A DNA stretch of 64,000 nt from Escherichia coli (GTDB lineage: Bacteria; Pseudomonadota; Gammaproteobacteria; Enterobacterales; Enterobacteriaceae). The DNA is taken from the NCBI RefSeq assembly GCF_009931435.1, contig NZ_CP043414.1; one strand, 5' to 3'. Below, one piece after another: positions 30,343 through 34,923 of the stretch. The position numbers were made by a program, and so were the translations under genes. The notes beneath the pieces were generated by a model that was not told the DNA's origin, made no database searches, and saw only the letters and a list, made by a program, of their open reading frames with translations. Numbering within the stretch: position 1 is the stretch's first letter; the number at the start of each line of letters is the position of its first letter.

Positions 30343-31659
30343 TTACCTGTTTTCCCACAATCTCAGCATCGCTTTGTGCTCTTCTGTCAGCACAATCGGC
30401 GGGCGTCTGACGCGAATATAGTTAATCGCTTCATCAACGGTTTTACAGTGTCCGTAACATAACAGCCATGCGGCCACAACCAACGCACTGCGCGATAATC
30501 CCAACGCGCAATGGACCAGAATGCTGCCTTGCTCTTTGCGTAATGTTTCCAGCATCGCCACGGCCTGTCGGAGCTCCCCCTCTTCCGGAATCACCAGATC
30601 CAACATCGGTACACAAAAATAGAGTCGATCTTTTGTCGCGCGTCCGCGAGGGAATTCAAAGGTGACGTCCAGAACTGCATTCTGTGCCGGAATATGTCGT
30701 GGAAACGCCCCTAAATAAACACCCGCAGTAATTTCGCTCACTGGCTCCAGGCGAAGGCAAAACCAACGCATAGACAGCCACATCCCGATGCGCCAGGGCA
30801 ACGTCAGCCAGTAAACGGCAGGCGGGAGTTTCCCCTGACTATCTTTCCCTGTTGTTATCGCGCCAAGCCCACCGTACCCACGGCCAATAATGAGTAGCGA
30901 TAATACTGGCCAACATAACCAGACTGACCACCGTAACTGATTCATCATCATTAGCGTCATCAATACTATGCACGAACACGCGCCTACGACATAAGGCAGT
31001 GCTATTTTGATTCGACGTTGATCAGGTATCTGGTAGTTCCAGCGACGGTCGACGGGCACCATCCAGTCAATCAACATACCTACCGCCAGCCCTGTGATGA
31101 CATCAATAAAATGATGCTGCCAGGTCGTCAGCGTAGAAATAGCGATGAGTAAAAACCATCCGCCACAGACTTTACGCCACCTCACAGCCAGATGCTGACG
31201 ATAGTGACGCCAAAGTAGCCAGCAGAGAATAATATGCAGCGAAGGGGACTGGTTATAAGGCAGATCAAACAGTTCAAGTTGCGAAAATAGCCATCCCGTC
31301 ACCCCACTCACTTCAGGGCGGATAAAACTAAACTTCAGCGGATAGAGCAAAAAACCGCAACAGGCCATTACCGTTGCCAGAATAAGCCGGTGGACCAGTC
31401 GGCGCTGTTCGAATGTCGAGCGACAAACGAACAGCGAAAATCCATATAAAAGATCCAGACTCCAGTAAGGAACAATAGTCCAGGGAAGAAAAGGGATCGC
31501 CGTTTCCCAACCGAACACCTGACTGGGGATATCATGGTTGTTAAGATCCTGAAACGCGGTGAACTGATTAAGAAATCCATATGTGAAGAAGAAAAACGGG
31601 GCCAGCAACAATAACCAGCCAGCTCCTTGTAGCAATACGCTCCGGCGTTCAGTGGTCAC
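30343..31659 (-). CDS. ynbD: Membrane-anchored dual-specificity-type phosphatase YnbD
   Basis: N-terminal TM segments plus C-terminal HCALGLSRS (CX5R) motif. Start placed at the GTG at 31659 (VTTERRS), 8 nt before the ynbC stop; the listed ORF runs to 31731 and would overlap ynbC by 83 nt. Start uncertain. Confidence 0.7.
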
Positions 31660-33406
31660 GACGCACCGCCATCGAAACCGTAAAAATGCCCCACTCATCA
31701 ATCCGTTGTGTGCATTTATCAAATCCGGCATTACGCACGAGCGAATCCATCTCCCCTTGCGAACGCACGCGCATTACCCACGGTTTACCATCTTTATGAC
31801 TGGTTAACACCCCGGCAATCAGCTCCAGTTGTGGGTGCCACGGCTGCCCGGTGTAGATGAGAATGCCACCCGGTTCGATGGCATTGGCAAGACCAGCGAG
31901 GGAGTTTTTTACCTGCTCGTTTTCGGGAAAAAGCTCATACAGGCCAGAGACAATCGCCAACGTAGGCCGCGGAGTTAACGCGCTGAGTTCTGCAGTATTA
32001 AACGCATCGCCCTGTTCAAAACGCGCCCGCCCAGACATTCCCTTTTGGGCAATCATCTCTTGCCCCTGTGCAACATTTAACTCACTGTAATCACGTAACA
32101 AAATATCGCTTACGGCAGGCTCGTTTGCCAGCGCATCCAGTACATAGCCCCCATGCCCTGCGGCAATGTCAACCACGCGGACGGCTAAACCATTGGCGTG
32201 GAGATCGGCAACGGCTTGTTTCATCAGCATTTGTAAATGGGCTTTGCGCTGGCGAATACCGCGCCAGCCAACACTGTTCAGGTAGATTTTGTCGATAAAA
32301 CGCCCGAATGCGTTACTGCCTTGAGGTTGATTTTGATAGACATAATCCAGCGAACTGCCTGAATCAAAGCCGGTGCTCATTCCGAGATGCAGGCCCGCAG
32401 ATTGCGCCCCGAACAGTTTCATCGCCTTTCGCATAAAGCGATACGCCAAATCAACTGGCGATAATGGCACGGGTCCACCAGAAAGGAGCCGCCATCGATC
32501 CGCAGATGGTCCTGTGCGGTCTTCATGCTGATAATCAAATTTTTGCGACTTGTTAGCATATAAGCGACTAATAAAGCTTTGCATTTTTTCAAATGCCTGT
32601 GCCCTGTTCTCTTCACCCAACGTGTCGTGATAAAAGCCCGGCAGCAGATGCAGCTCTTTCAGAGGGCTACGTAATCTCTGATAAAAATCAATCTGCGGTT
32701 GGCGATGTACCACATAGTCATCGCCCGATATCAGTAGTTGCGTAGGGAGCGTAATCGCCGCCGCATCGCTAACAATACGTTCAGACGTTTTATAGAGATC
32801 GAGCAAGATATTGACGGCAATCGCCCGTGTGATCAGCGGATCATTATTGAAACTCGCTACCCGTTCCCAATCGTGGGTCAAATAGCGTCCTTTCACATAG
32901 GAATTAATAAAAAACAGACCACGCAGACGATGCCATAACGCCAGCGCAGGACGTGCCAGCGGCACATACAATTTAACCTTAAAGGCCGGAGAAGCCAGCA
33001 CCAGCCCGCGAATAGCAGGCGCATAATCATGAACCCATGTGGCAACCAGCACTGCGCCGACGCTTTGCGCGATCACAACCACCTCTTCCAGCCCGACCTG
33101 GCTGTCGCTGGCAGCAAAACGGACAAATTCATCGACATCCTGCACTGAACGCGCAAGAGATGGGCTATAACCACGCGGCCCCGAAGTTTGTCCATGCCCT
33201 CGGGCATCCCAGGCATAAAAAGTAGTATCTGGCATCGCCAGTTCATCAACGATATGTTGTAGACGACCAGAATGTTCATGACCGCGATGAAATAAGACGA
33301 TGACCTTTTTAACCCCTGGCTGTAAAGCGGGCCAGTGCCGATAAAACAACGCTGTATTATCACTGGCTGTAAAAAAACATTCCCCAGGGATGCGTGAATT
33401 TTCCAT
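31649..33406 (-). CDS. ynbC: Bifunctional alpha/beta-hydrolase / SAM-methyltransferase-like protein YnbC
   Basis: 585-aa ORF with N-terminal lysophospholipase-like fold (HGQTSG, AQSVG) and C-terminal methyltransferase-like region. Confidence 0.9.
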
Positions 33407-33421
33407 TTTCTCTATTTTCCT

Positions 33422-34318
33422 TCAGTAACAGCAGTAGCGAATAAAATAAAAAAATACCGGAGCGGTGAAAATTAATGAGTCAATCCTGTCAAGGAGTCCG
33501 CCATGTCCTGGTAATAGTTTTCCACTATCTTTAACACCAATATCTCGTTTGATGGCTGACATCACTACATCGCCGCAAAAACCACTAATACCAATTAACA
33601 AACCCGCTAATAATGCCTGTAATGTATCTAGCGGTGTCAGCAACGGTCCAATAATCAGTGACGCAATCATGGTGGTGATTACGCCGCCCATCAGACCTTC
33701 CAATGTTTTTCCCGGGCTGACTTTAGGGACCACTTTTCTTCTGCCGCAGGATTTCCCCCATAAATACTGTGCAATATCGTTTGACTCGGTTAATGCCAAA
33801 AGAAATAACACCAGTAACGCCCCGACCTGGATATTTATGGTTGGCAACATTAATAACCAGGCGGCATGACTCAAGGCGAAAACGGTCATTATCCAGCCCC
33901 AAAAAATGGCGCTCACGGTATGCAGAAAACCGGAGAGGTCACCCACAAAAACTTGCCAGGTGGCTAATATCAGAAACCCAGCCAAAGGTATGAATAACAG
34001 AAACAGCTCAAAGCAATTAAAACCGATAAGCAAATAGTTAAGAGGAATAACCCAATATAACCAACGCGGAAAATGAACGGATATAAGCGTACAATATTCT
34101 TTCAATGCCATAAAACTTATCAGCGCAAAAAACGTCAATGTCATCCAGTGTGGACCTGAAATGACCAGTGAAAAACAAATGACGATGCCCCACCAGGTAC
34201 GAATACGTAATGTAACTTCATCCCCTTTTCTCTTTGGTAACCGCCATACCAGAAAACGGTTTATCAGCGTTGCTAAAATTAACAACACGAAAAGTATTGC
34301 CAGAGATTTTTCCAGCAT
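33422..34318 (-). CDS. ynbB: CdsA-like phosphatidate cytidylyltransferase paralogue YnbB
   Basis: 298-aa polytopic membrane ORF with CTP-transferase family C-terminal signature. Confidence 0.9.
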   Translation of the reverse strand: [298 protein letters not shown]

Positions 34319-34923
34319 TACTTTTCAGCACTCATAAAAAGCACGCTCCGACTACGATTAATCGCAGTCCAGATAAGCAGAATTGAAGCAATGCTCCATA
34401 AAAGATTATTCCATTGCATCCACTGTGGATAAATGGCAACGGCCAGCCCCCACAACCCAAATATTAACGCACGATCGCTTTTGCCAAATGGACCGGCATA
34501 ACTGCGAATACCGTTAATCGTCTGCGCGAGTAAACCGCAAAACTCAGTCAATATGGTGCAAAATAACATGAGTATTACGAGTGATGCGTTACTTTCCGGT
34601 AAAAATAAAAACGGTAAATAAAGCGCAATATCGGAAATAACATCGCCAGTTTCATTCAAAATCGCCCCAAGACGTGTTTGCTGATTACACTCACGCGCCA
34701 TCATGCCATCCAGCGCATTGAGTGCCATACGGACAAAAAGCACGATGGGCAATAGCAAAAAGAGGATGGGGCGTGCCACCAACATCAACAGCAATCCGGT
34801 AAGAAGAGAAAGCGCCAGTGCAGCAAGAGTGATGTGATTCGCTGTAACATGGTGCTTATTAAGCCAAAACATCGTCGGCCTTAACAGCGACTGAAAGAGC
34901 GGTTTTATCTGGTAGAGCGTCAT
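34318..34923 (-). CDS. ynbA: CDP-alcohol phosphatidyltransferase-family protein YnbA
   Basis: Motif D-G-x2-A-R...G-x3-D-x3-D region (LDGMMARE...GAILNETGD); ATG at 34923 (201 aa); 1-nt overlap with ynbB. Confidence 0.9.
   Translation of the reverse strand: MTLYQIKPLFQSLLRPTMFWLNKHHVTANHITLAALALSLLTGLLLMLVARPILFLLLPIVLFVRMALNALDGMMARECNQQTRLGAILNETGDVISDIALYLPFLFLPESNASLVILMLFCTILTEFCGLLAQTINGIRSYAGPFGKSDRALIFGLWGLAVAIYPQWMQWNNLLWSIASILLIWTAINRSRSVLFMSAEK

Follow-up and report, generated by a model that had tools for sequence, protein, structure and literature searches.

The ynbABCD operon of Escherichia coli and a possible auxiliary pathway for phospholipid head groups

The closest described counterpart of the ynbABCD genes of Escherichia coli is the six-gene arc1A-F operon of Pseudomonas aeruginosa (PA2541-PA2536), which is induced through Gac/Rsm and protects the cell from type VI lipase toxins (Ting et al. 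2022, eLife; Nat Commun 2025). Five of its genes are lipid-related and four of its proteins resemble enzymes of phosphatidylglycerol (PG) synthesis (Ting et al.); PA2537 is an acyltransferase homologue and PA2540 a putative phospholipase. The ynb and Arc1 clusters are very probably the same, a correspondence drawn from gene content, gene order and annotations rather than from alignment of the PAO1 proteins. The gene families are alike, as is the pseudomonad order A-C-D-small protein-acyltransferase-B; PA2541 starts with MIS and the pseudomonad YnbA homologues with MISIYQLKP; and the Arc1 Tn-seq hits PA2541, PA2540 and PA2536 correspond, via gene order, to YnbA, YnbC and YnbB. Both operons encode specialised phospholipid enzymes and are silent before induction. 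However, only four of the six genes occur in E. coli, in the order A-B-C-D, and control there is by BglJ-RcsB instead of Gac/Rsm, with cold induction of ynbB.

Individual steps have relatives elsewhere. The PG pathway (PlsC, CdsA, PgsA and PgpA/B/C, with PTPMT1 in mitochondria) has four reaction types in common with the cluster, namely an acyltransferase (in clusters outside E. coli), a CDP-diacylglycerol (CDP-DAG) synthase, a CDP-alcohol phosphatidyltransferase and a lipid-phosphate phosphatase of the PTPMT1 fold, to which the cluster adds lipase-methyltransferase and sphingomyelin synthase (SMS)-like domains. The actinobacterial and archaeal phosphatidylinositol-phosphate (PIP) synthase route (PgsA1/PIPS) includes the enzymes most similar to YnbA in sequence and structure, and its transfer to a phosphorylated alcohol followed by dephosphorylation fits the pairing of YnbA with the YnbD phosphatase, but no inositol-phosphate synthase gene was found in or near the clusters. 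In MPIase biosynthesis (Nishiyama laboratory), YnbB is one of two reported starter enzymes (CdsA/YnbB, leading to GlcNAc-PP-DAG), although it alone of the four proteins is implicated, in a role described as auxiliary.

Before this work, ynbABCD had been annotated and YnbB tied to MPIase synthesis; here we add a variant active-site motif in YnbA, the two-domain make-up of YnbD and homologue support for a GTG start of ynbD. The reading we favour, with roughly even confidence, is that ynbABCD is the four-of-six-gene E. coli version of a widespread cluster for making or remodelling a special glycerophospholipid, likely for envelope defence or repair.

Operon layout and predicted enzymes

The analysed window, a 64,000-nucleotide stretch of contig NZ_CP043414.1, is 100% identical to E. 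coli strain R32_14_1F and has matches in 5417 of 5426 complete genomes. The four intact, tightly packed minus-strand genes noticed there at 30343-34923 by the first-pass annotation were confirmed by open reading frames (ORFs), RefSeq annotation and gene junctions. They are ynbA (34318-34923; ATG, 201 aa), encoding a CDP-alcohol phosphatidyltransferase-family membrane protein, ynbB (33422-34318; ATG, 298 aa), encoding a CdsA paralogue, ynbC (31649-33406; ATG, 585 aa) and ynbD, annotated by RefSeq in this strain and in K-12 from a TTG (30343-31635; 430 aa), with an alternative GTG start (30343-31659; 438 aa). The first two genes have one base in common (TAATG), ynbB and ynbC are separated by 15 nt in the same frame, and ynbC and ynbD overlap by 11 nt with the GTG start or lie 13 nt apart with the TTG. 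The lengths of all four ORFs are unchanged in K-12, which, together with dN/dS ratios of 0.17-0.30 (0.012-0.039 for the neighbouring genes hrpA, azoR and pdxI), marks them as genuine genes under selection rather than chance ORFs; ynbABCD is a genuine, co-translated operon. Its promoter is contained in the ydbD-ynbA intergenic region (34924-35093, minus strand), where no consensus sigma-70 promoter was found and where a BglJ-RcsB site has been mapped 65-68 bp upstream of the ynbA transcription start (PMC3950696). All four domain assignments made at first pass proved correct in Pfam (CDP-OH_P_transf, CTP_transf_1, Hydrolase_4 with Methyltransf_20, and DSPc).

YnbA matches PF01066 (CDP-OH_P_transf; 6e-9, 36.9 bits). 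Among NCBIfam models, the PIP and archaetidylinositol-phosphate synthases come first, with 74.5 and 49.7 bits against equivalog cut-offs of 180 and 170, and PgsA follows with a weak match of 28 bits, also under its cut-off. Among solved structures M. tuberculosis PgsA1 (6h53; E 4e-12) matches best, and the PIP synthases are the closest relatives of YnbA. Its active-site motif, N69-x2-D72-G-x2-A-R-x8-G86-x3-N90-x3-D94-x3-D98 (residues 69-98; 34630-34719, minus strand), departs from that of both PIP synthases and PgsA in that Asn replaces Asp at D1 and D3, leaving two of the four canonical Asp; in the 6h53 alignment N69 faces D1 and N90 faces D3, and the variant is unvarying in 78 of 78 homologues. 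Since two metal-binding Asp are replaced, the chemistry may depart from standard CDP-alcohol transfer. The family also shares an invariant GPxGKSDRA segment, a putative phosphate-binding site. In one lineage, YnbA is naturally fused to YnbC within an A~C-D-acyltransferase-B cluster.

YnbB (PF01148, CTP_transf_1; 3e-69, 234 bits) retains the complete CDP-DAG synthase signature SAIKRDxGVKDxGxxxxGHGGxLDRxD (residues 254-280; 33479-33559, minus strand) and scores 104.7 bits against the CdsA equivalog, whose cut-off is 385. Published work describes it as a paralogue of CdsA with CDP-DAG synthase activity in vitro; it does not complement a cdsA deletion. That the cluster has a CdsA paralogue of its own argues for CDP-DAG as the donor.

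YnbC is a fusion whose N-terminal alpha/beta hydrolase domain (residues 32-266; 32609-33313, minus strand; Hydrolase_4, 2e-67) resembles monoacylglycerol lipases and lysophospholipases, with a catalytic triad S115/D230/H260 conserved at 95% or more and hits on monoacylglycerol lipases in the PDB (1e-15 when searched as a single sequence, 2.5e-38 as a family profile). The C-terminal class I SAM methyltransferase domain (residues 275-582; 31661-32584, minus strand; Methyltransf_20, 1e-150) is modelled by AlphaFold2 at a pLDDT of 93.7, and Foldseek returned generic small-molecule methyltransferases only (TM about 0.5-0.65).

YnbD is predicted to combine a periplasm-facing sphingomyelin/IPC-synthase-like domain with a PTPMT1-like cytoplasmic phosphatase. 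Its membrane domain (30751-31635, minus strand) has about eight transmembrane helices and a PAP2/sphingomyelin-synthase-like His-His-Asp site (PSLH134, H174-H175-x2-D178), with a PAP2_3 match of 21.7 bits, under the cut-off of 27. The nearest matches are SMSr and Aur1 of the PAP2 superfamily, from which YnbD differs by an identity of 10-12%, by added helices and by the fused phosphatase; because E. coli has no ceramide, the acceptor must differ as well. At least 21 Lys/Arg in the loops on the cytoplasmic side, against three on the periplasmic side, place the PAP2-like site in the periplasm and the phosphatase in the cytoplasm by prediction. The latter, a dual-specificity phosphatase domain (residues 306-429 in TTG numbering; 30349-30720, minus strand; DSPc, 3e-25), carries the CX5R motif HCALGLSRS (HC376x5R382S) and D346, and no other phosphatase is closer to it than PTPMT1, a PGP phosphatase.

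The cluster in other bacteria and its state in E. coli

Among 80 loci of the conserved cluster, ynbC occurs in all 80, ynbA in 78, ynbD in 71, ynbB in 61 and a PlsC-type acyltransferase gene in 58; together with a gene for a small membrane protein, whose two forms are homologous (hhalign probability 98%), these make up a six-gene cluster. Hosts include Pseudomonas, Burkholderiales, Rhodocyclales, Bradyrhizobium and an acidobacterial MAG, and nearly all pseudomonad loci on contigs spanning the complete cluster have the order given above. Proteus, Providencia, Xenorhabdus and Morganella keep A-C-D without ynbB or the acyltransferase, and Lonsdalea also lacks the latter, so neither gene is an obligatory part of the cluster.

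None of the 5426 E. coli genomes has the acyltransferase or the small-protein gene on its chromosome; E. coli has lost both. In addition, about 21% of complete genomes lack at least 20% of the region through several distinct deletions, ST131 and similar genomes being without the entire ydbD-ynbABCD block and others carrying it truncated; roughly one E. coli genome in five can do without the cluster. The four genes are under relaxed selection. YnbA, YnbC and YnbD retain almost every family-invariant residue (0 of 46, 2 of 205 and 1 of 65 deviating), in line with a working pathway, and YnbB deviates at 9 of 76; in the strain analysed here, YnbC carries R420G in its SAM-binding motif, at a site at least 95% invariant in the family. 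Given the two missing genes, the raised dN/dS and the frequent deletions, E. coli may lack a complete pathway or leave it idle.

The same three features, with the YnbB deviations, R420G, the low GC of the ydbD-ynbAB stretch and the activator-dependent expression, would also suit a decaying operon now without function, activity being confined to the six-gene clusters found elsewhere. We regard this as unlikely: two strains whose DNA differs by about 4.5% have all four frames intact and equally long, dN/dS stays well below 1, the catalytic motifs of YnbA, YnbB, YnbC and YnbD are whole, 79% of genomes keep the region and YnbB is reportedly active on expression. The shorter gene sets of Lonsdalea and the Proteus group also speak against it.

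A proposed head-group pathway and its alternatives

The role of ynbABCD is most likely that of an inducible auxiliary CDP-DAG head-group pathway. YnbB, for which CDP-DAG synthesis is reported, would supply a private CDP-DAG pool, from which YnbA, with its N..D..N..D site, may move the phosphatidyl group onto a phosphate-bearing alcohol. The cytoplasmic phosphatase of YnbD would strip that phosphate, as in the conversion of PGP to PG or of PIP to PI, and its periplasm-facing domain could cleave the head group off or hand it to a different molecule of the envelope. YnbC would deacylate and methylate the pathway lipid or a freed fatty acid, and elsewhere the acyltransferase and small membrane protein round out the set. 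The operon is silent by default and is induced via BglJ-RcsB, ynbB transcription rising in the cold; it likely serves envelope defence or repair, for instance against phospholipase toxins, and is dispensable in E. coli. Points against such a pathway are that neither E. coli nor Pseudomonas has yielded a lipid product of the cluster and that E. coli is not known to produce inositol phosphate lipids, besides the Asn substitutions in YnbA, the generic fold matches of the methyltransferase, the reduced state of the operon in E. coli and the silent ynbB deletion described below. The unusual head-group pathway proposed by the first-pass annotation is partly supported, in that domains and tight coupling hold and a dedicated pathway is still the best reading. 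Its remark that it knew of no assigned product stands insofar as we found no paper giving all four genes a product or pathway, but it overlooked the work on YnbB and Arc1.

A route to the MPIase anchor is improbable. Here YnbB would make CDP-DAG and YnbA, rather than YnbB, would add GlcNAc-1-phosphate to form GlcNAc-PP-DAG, with YnbC and YnbD acting later. Published work reports that YnbB overproduction increases the MPIase glycolipid and restores it under CdsA depletion, that ynbB and cdsA are both cold-induced and that the enzymes of later MPIase steps are without assignment; speculatively, the Asp changes in YnbA might fit a less activation-dependent phosphate acceptor. However, deletion of ynbB alone leaves growth, phospholipids and MPIase level unchanged, and ynbA, ynbC and ynbD go unmentioned in the MPIase papers found. 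MPIase is also reportedly essential, yet the operon is missing or truncated in many E. coli genomes, the Proteus group has A-C-D clusters without B, and the cluster extends from Pseudomonas to an acidobacterial MAG, far beyond Enterobacterales, whereas the MPIase glycan is the enterobacterial common antigen trisaccharide.

Equally improbable is a back-up or stress route to ordinary PG with no novel lipid, to which the PG-like proteins of Arc1, the likeness of the YnbD phosphatase to mitochondrial PTPMT1 and the weak PgsA match of YnbA would point. Against it stand the higher scores of YnbA with inositol-type synthases, its family-specific motif, and a fused lipase-methyltransferase (in 80 of 80 loci, and joined to YnbA in one lineage) and a periplasm-facing SMS-like domain for which PG synthesis has no need. 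Moreover, ordinary E. coli cannot do without pgsA despite having ynbA, though silence of the operon could explain this.

Bacillus subtilis YtpA makes bacilysocin, a lyso-PG antibiotic, and one source names a YnbC homologue 'phospholipase YtpA'. A methylated lysophospholipid or fatty-acid methyl ester released by the YnbC hydrolase and capped by its methyltransferase, as a signal or antimicrobial, is nevertheless very unlikely, since the support (a Hydrolase_4/monoacylglycerol-lipase grouping, a likeness to small-molecule O-methyltransferases, a distant YnbC homologue adjoining ACP-KS-DH-KR genes and a published modest rise in competitor survival on Arc1 loss) is circumstantial with generic fold matches, defence is the main published Arc1 phenotype and no such compound is reported.

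The two ends of ynbD

The first-pass annotation called the ynbD start ambiguous between the GTG at 31659 and a codon upstream. The ambiguity is real, but the annotated competitor is the downstream TTG (31635). Homologues, all of which begin 7-17 codons upstream of the TTG-equivalent position, favour the GTG as the probable start; RefSeq gives the 438-aa form in strain JP538, and the Citrobacter sp. FP75 homologue does not conserve the ATGs at 31698 and 31731.

Beyond the other end of the gene, between the convergent ynbD and azoR, lies a perfect 11-bp hairpin (30304-30333; -20.7 kcal/mol, z -4.3 relative to shuffled sequences). It has no U-tract and was not called in a strict terminator scan; it is probably a two-way transcription stop.

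Organization of the ynbABCD operon

The four consecutive minus-strand genes reported by the first-pass annotation are borne out by both the ORF list and RefSeq, namely ynbA (34318-34923), ynbB (33422-34318), ynbC (31649-33406) and ynbD (30343-31635 as annotated, from a TTG); the feature is real and its description correct. Its neighbours are azoR and hrpA at the ynbD end and ydbD and pdxI at the ynbA end. The genes are indeed tightly joined, ynbA and ynbB having one base in common (TAATG) and ynbB lying 15 nt from ynbC, and all the proposed domains find Pfam support: CDP-OH_P_transf for YnbA, CTP_transf_1 for YnbB, Hydrolase_4 plus Methyltransf_20 for YnbC and DSPc for YnbD. 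A 5.2-kb query was 100% identical to E. coli strain R32_14_1F and matched 5417 of 5426 complete genomes. As an object the operon is already known, being annotated and partly studied. The claim that its product is undescribed holds insofar as we found no paper treating the four genes as one pathway, but work on parts of the operon has been published, above all on YnbB.

Because ynbB and ynbC share the same frame across their 15-nt gap, losing the ynbB stop codon is all it would take to produce the YnbB-YnbC fusion of 889 aa listed in one E. coli protein entry (P0001). Rfam gave no match within window positions 29000-38500, the promoter and terminator scan found sites no more often than in shuffled sequence and no consensus promoter 5' of ynbA, and the PADLOC defence models gave only one weak generic methyltransferase match.

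The ambiguity raised over the ynbD start is justified for two candidates, GTG 31659 and TTG 31635, but does not extend to ATGs farther upstream. RefSeq uses TTG 31635 (430 aa) in this strain and in K-12, and the equivalent of GTG 31659 (438 aa) in strain JP538; ynbC and ynbD overlap by 11 nt with the GTG and are spaced by 13 nt with the TTG. Across 19 YnbD homologues, the residue aligned to the TTG position is W, L, F or Y, and the start codon lies 7-17 codons upstream of the TTG equivalent, followed by a conserved basic patch; in Citrobacter sp. FP75, ynbD carries a GTG at the very position of the E. coli GTG. The better Shine-Dalgarno sequence (GGAG, 4 nt upstream) precedes the TTG, and translation could therefore begin at either codon, the GTG being in our view the likelier of the two. 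The ATGs at 31698 and 31731 were rejected: the homologue from Citrobacter sp. FP75 does not share them, and a start at either would reach far into ynbC.

Predicted activities of the four proteins

YnbA matches the CDP-alcohol phosphatidyltransferase family PF01066 significantly (36.9 bits for a cut-off of 22), and its family profile retrieved phosphatidylinositol-phosphate (PIP) synthases from the PDB at an E-value of 4e-12; judged by sequence, its nearest relatives are these synthases, not PgsA. Alignment to M. tuberculosis PgsA1 reveals a departure from the canonical four-Asp motif (D1-x2-D2-G-x2-A-R-x8-G-x3-D3-x3-D4), with N69 at D1 and N90 at D3, D72 and D94 being retained and followed by D98. 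Since the N69-x2-D72...N90-x3-D94 pattern is invariant in 78 of 78 YnbA homologues, the two Asn residues are a conserved subfamily trait, not decay. YnbA is a CDP-alcohol transferase homologue with an atypical site, for which phosphatidyl transfer is predicted, and its invariant R140-x-Y-x-GPxGKSDRA segment looks like a putative site for a phosphate-bearing acceptor.

YnbB scores 234 bits against PF01148 and contains the complete 27-residue CdsA C-terminal signature, S-x-[LIVMF]-K-R-x4-K-D-x-[GSA]-x2-[LIF]-[PG]-x-H-G-G-[LIVMF]-x-D-R-[LIVMFT]-D, which is conserved in its family. It falls below the NCBIfam equivalog cut-off for CdsA (104.7 vs 385 bits), the match covering the C-terminal half only. 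YnbB has been described as a CdsA paralogue that synthesizes CDP-DAG in vitro, is cold-induced together with cdsA and, when overproduced, raises or restores the glycolipid MPIase; it does not complement a cdsA deletion, cannot replace CdsA in bulk phospholipid synthesis and gives no phenotype when singly deleted. The MPIase literature up to mid-2026 contains no mention of ynbA, ynbC or ynbD, an effect on MPIase or compound I having been published for YnbB only.

YnbC keeps the Ser115-Asp230-His260 triad of monoacylglycerol-lipase-like hydrolases (at least 95% conserved); its nucleophile elbow reads A-Q-S-V-G, not G-x-S-x-G. Its methyltransferase domain (PF12147, Methyltransf_20, 1e-150) adopts a class I fold in a confident structure model and bears a Gly-rich SAM-binding motif, DIAAGHG, conserved in the family. 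A fold search with this domain returned nothing beyond generic small-molecule methyltransferases and one functionally uncharacterized Bordetella protein, hence no clue to the substrate. In the present strain, residue 420 (window 32147-32149), which directly follows DIAAGHG, is Gly, the residue being Arg in K-12 and in at least 95% of 80 homologues; this R420G substitution may weaken the methyltransferase in this lineage. In one strain background, polyphosphate was reported to accumulate as a result of a transposon insertion into ynbC, an effect not seen in the Keio background.

The genomic surroundings of distant YnbC homologues were mostly uninformative, the contigs being short. At one locus (L090, 2733-8749), a homologue with 33% identity directly follows acyl carrier protein (ACP), ketosynthase (KS), dehydratase (DH) and ketoreductase (KR) genes, a hint that, outside ynb-type clusters, fatty-acyl products can serve as substrates of the lipase-methyltransferase fusion. 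Another (L088, 6970-14629) encodes a 927-aa homologue with an N-terminal region of about 370 aa without assignment, adjoining a patatin-like phospholipase and a short-chain dehydrogenase, with a CdsA-like gene in the vicinity, as well as a PAP2_3 protein of 592 aa encoded on the other strand; it is a differently built lipid cluster.

The dual-specificity phosphatase (DSP) domain of YnbD carries the HCx5R(S/T) P-loop (HCALGLSRS) together with the general-acid Asp, and it is a candidate PTPMT1-type lipid phosphatase that would act on phosphatidylglycerophosphate (PGP) or a related lipid phosphate. The membrane domain matches Pfam PAP2_3 below threshold (21.7 bits for a cut-off of 27). Compared with the PAP2 reference motifs (C1, K-x6-RP; C2, PSGH; C3, SR-x5-H-x3-D), C1 is only approximate (K101-x4-R106-P107), C2 retains its Ser and His (PSLH134), and C3 retains His and Asp in H174-H175-x2-D178 and lacks SR. 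In the structure model (pLDDT 94), at least 21 Lys/Arg residues lie on one side of the helices and three on the other, an asymmetry which would make the His-His-Asp site periplasmic and the phosphatase cytoplasmic.

A six-gene cluster and its probable relation to Arc1

The YnbC-type lipase-methyltransferase fusion is widespread, with 396 cluster representatives at E < 1e-30. Scanning a one-genome-per-species collection confirmed at least 540 loci, of which the best 80 were examined; these belong to Enterobacterales, Pseudomonas, Burkholderiales, Rhodocyclales, Bradyrhizobium and one acidobacterial MAG. Within them, the YnbC homologue is accompanied by YnbA (78 loci), YnbD (71) and YnbB (61), and a PlsC-family acyltransferase of about 210 aa (PF01553) occurs in 58 of the 80. 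A small membrane protein of about 130-155 aa is also encoded, its enterobacterial and pseudomonad forms being homologous (hhalign probability 98%). The acyltransferase (AT) and the small membrane protein are two further members of the gene set; in the Citrobacter locus L003 their genes lie at 9367-10008 and 13031-13432, respectively. The order is A-B-AT-C-D-small in Citrobacter, Hafnia and relatives, A-C-D-small-AT-B in Pseudomonas and Burkholderiales, and A-C-D-small, without B and AT, in Proteus, Providencia, Xenorhabdus and Morganella. In one metagenomic lineage YnbA is fused to YnbC within an A~C-D-AT-B cluster, which is strong evidence that both proteins work together. Phytobacter massiliensis (L007, 8449-11749) has A-B-C followed directly by azoR, D being absent, and Lonsdalea (L012/L013) has A-B-C-D-small, devoid of the acyltransferase; such reduced forms indicate recurrent gene loss from the cluster.

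The pseudomonad arrangement matches the published one of antagonism resistance cluster 1 (Arc1, arc1A-F, PA2541-PA2536) of P. aeruginosa, a six-gene operon induced by Gac/Rsm, whose first gene PA2541 is a direct RsmA target. Of its products, five have to do with lipids and four are similar to enzymes of PG synthesis; an acyltransferase homologue is encoded by PA2537 and a putative phospholipase by PA2540. The published deletion primers show that PA2541 starts with ATG ATT TCC (MIS), and several pseudomonad YnbA homologues start with MISIYQLKP. Taken together, gene content, gene order, the two position-specific annotations and the MIS start make it very probable that the ynb-type cluster and Arc1 are equivalent. 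Read via gene order, the Arc1 Tn-seq hits PA2541, PA2540 and PA2536 would be the YnbA, YnbC and YnbB counterparts.

Sequence searches for the P. aeruginosa proteins were less productive. A protein search seeded with a P. chengduensis homologue retrieved relatives from the P. mendocina group only, and the 50% cluster representatives named no P. aeruginosa protein. A 24-mer from the published deletion primer had no match, its guessed junction being probably wrong, since PA2541 reads IYQ after MIS, and the 20-mer F1 primer gave two chance matches, neither with ynb homologues.

Arc1 protects P. aeruginosa against the type VI system of B. thailandensis and the lipase effectors TseL and Tle1, and a small offensive effect has also been reported. 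By analogy with this phenotype, the cluster may help cells to survive phospholipase damage.

Retention of ynbABCD in E. coli and a candidate pathway

The E. coli cluster comprises A-B-C-D only, four of the six genes of the Arc1-type set; neither the acyltransferase nor the small gene was detected in the chromosome of any of the 5426 E. coli genomes. Of these genomes, only 4274 cover 80% or more of the region. In the ST131 strain 2017_APHA, azoR directly adjoins pdxI, so ydbD-ynbABCD is wholly absent, which argues against an essential role in MPIase synthesis; other strains have deletions within the block, such as one that runs from ynbA into ynbC. The ydbD-ynbAB segment is AT-rich (GC 0.40-0.47 vs 0.50-0.55 in the flanks). 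The dN/dS values against K-12 are 0.17-0.30 for ynbA-D and 0.23 for ydbD, vs 0.012-0.039 for hrpA, azoR and pdxI. All four ynb reading frames are intact, and deviations at family-invariant residues amount to 0 of 46 in YnbA, 2 of 205 in YnbC, 1 of 65 in YnbD and 9 of 76 in YnbB. Constraint on ynbABCD in E. coli is relaxed but real.

A tentative reading, which we consider possible, is that ynb/Arc1 makes an undescribed glycerophospholipid or pyrophosphate-linked lipid by means of an N..D..N..D transferase and a two-faced YnbD, as an inducible shield against, or repair of damage by, phospholipase toxins, and that the E. coli version is trimmed. In the mechanism that we favour, YnbB would supply CDP-DAG, an activity reported in the literature, and YnbA would move the phosphatidyl group onto a phosphorylated alcohol. 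By analogy with PGP/PIP chemistry, the cytoplasmic phosphatase domain of YnbD would then remove the phosphate and finish the lipid, which would be flipped, its head group being cleaved or passed to an envelope acceptor by the periplasmic SMS-like domain. YnbC might deacylate and methylate the pathway lipid or a released fatty acid. The acyltransferase, where present, could serve phosphatidate supply or lysolipid re-acylation; under the tentative reading above, the trimmed E. coli version would borrow the housekeeping PlsC.

A minority idea is that the bioactive product is instead a methylated lysolipid or fatty-acid methyl ester, as suggested by the YtpA-like hydrolase and O-methyltransferase-like fold of YnbC, by the distant homologue adjoining ACP-KS-DH-KR genes and by the small offensive effect of Arc1. 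That the operon is a non-functional relic in E. coli seems unlikely; were it idle there, it would offer a clear case of a pathway caught during loss. A plain back-up PG route leaves the conserved lipase-methyltransferase, the SMS-like domain and the affinity of YnbA to PIP synthases unexplained. A role in MPIase synthesis only fits poorly with three facts: ST131 lacks the operon, knocking out ynbB is silent, and the cluster occurs far beyond Enterobacterales.

The lipid metabolism of E. coli is often taken as fully mapped, yet in ynbABCD lie genes for a second CDP-diacylglycerol synthase and a second CDP-alcohol transferase, as well as for two fusion enzymes of unusual make-up. The Arc1 and MPIase connections provide two concrete testable leads in the best available genetic model, and the most useful outcome of this work lies in the concrete tests that follow from linking ynbABCD, Arc1 and MPIase and from the unusual architectures of YnbA and YnbD. 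The product, if found, would account for a cluster present at 540 or more loci and could show a bacterial resistance mechanism to lipase toxins.

Three E. coli plasmids of 104-262 kb (NZ_CP045714.1, NZ_CP166875.1 and NZ_CP027341.1) carry a second, Citrobacter-like cluster with about 78% DNA identity, located on NZ_CP045714.1 at 6007-10141 of locus L087. In pFHI_NMBU_11_02, it consists of a frameshifted ynbA, ynbB, the acyltransferase, ynbC and a 73-aa ynbD stump, and colicin M and immunity genes lie a few kb from this partly broken cluster. On the chromosome, the ydbD-ynbABCD block of about 7 kb (window 30290-37463) behaves as one presence/absence unit in E. coli. On the 3' side of hrpA, a stretch with three hypothetical genes plus a gene fragment (window 24026-25435; 27-1436 of L001, a piece of the window) may be a strain-specific insertion, the examined ST131 strain having ydcF and aldA in its place. 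Past pdxI, from window position 38532 onward (L001 14533-17201+), lies an autotransporter gene of some 5.5 kb that looks intact; its K-12 equivalent is the fragmented pseudogene ydbA.
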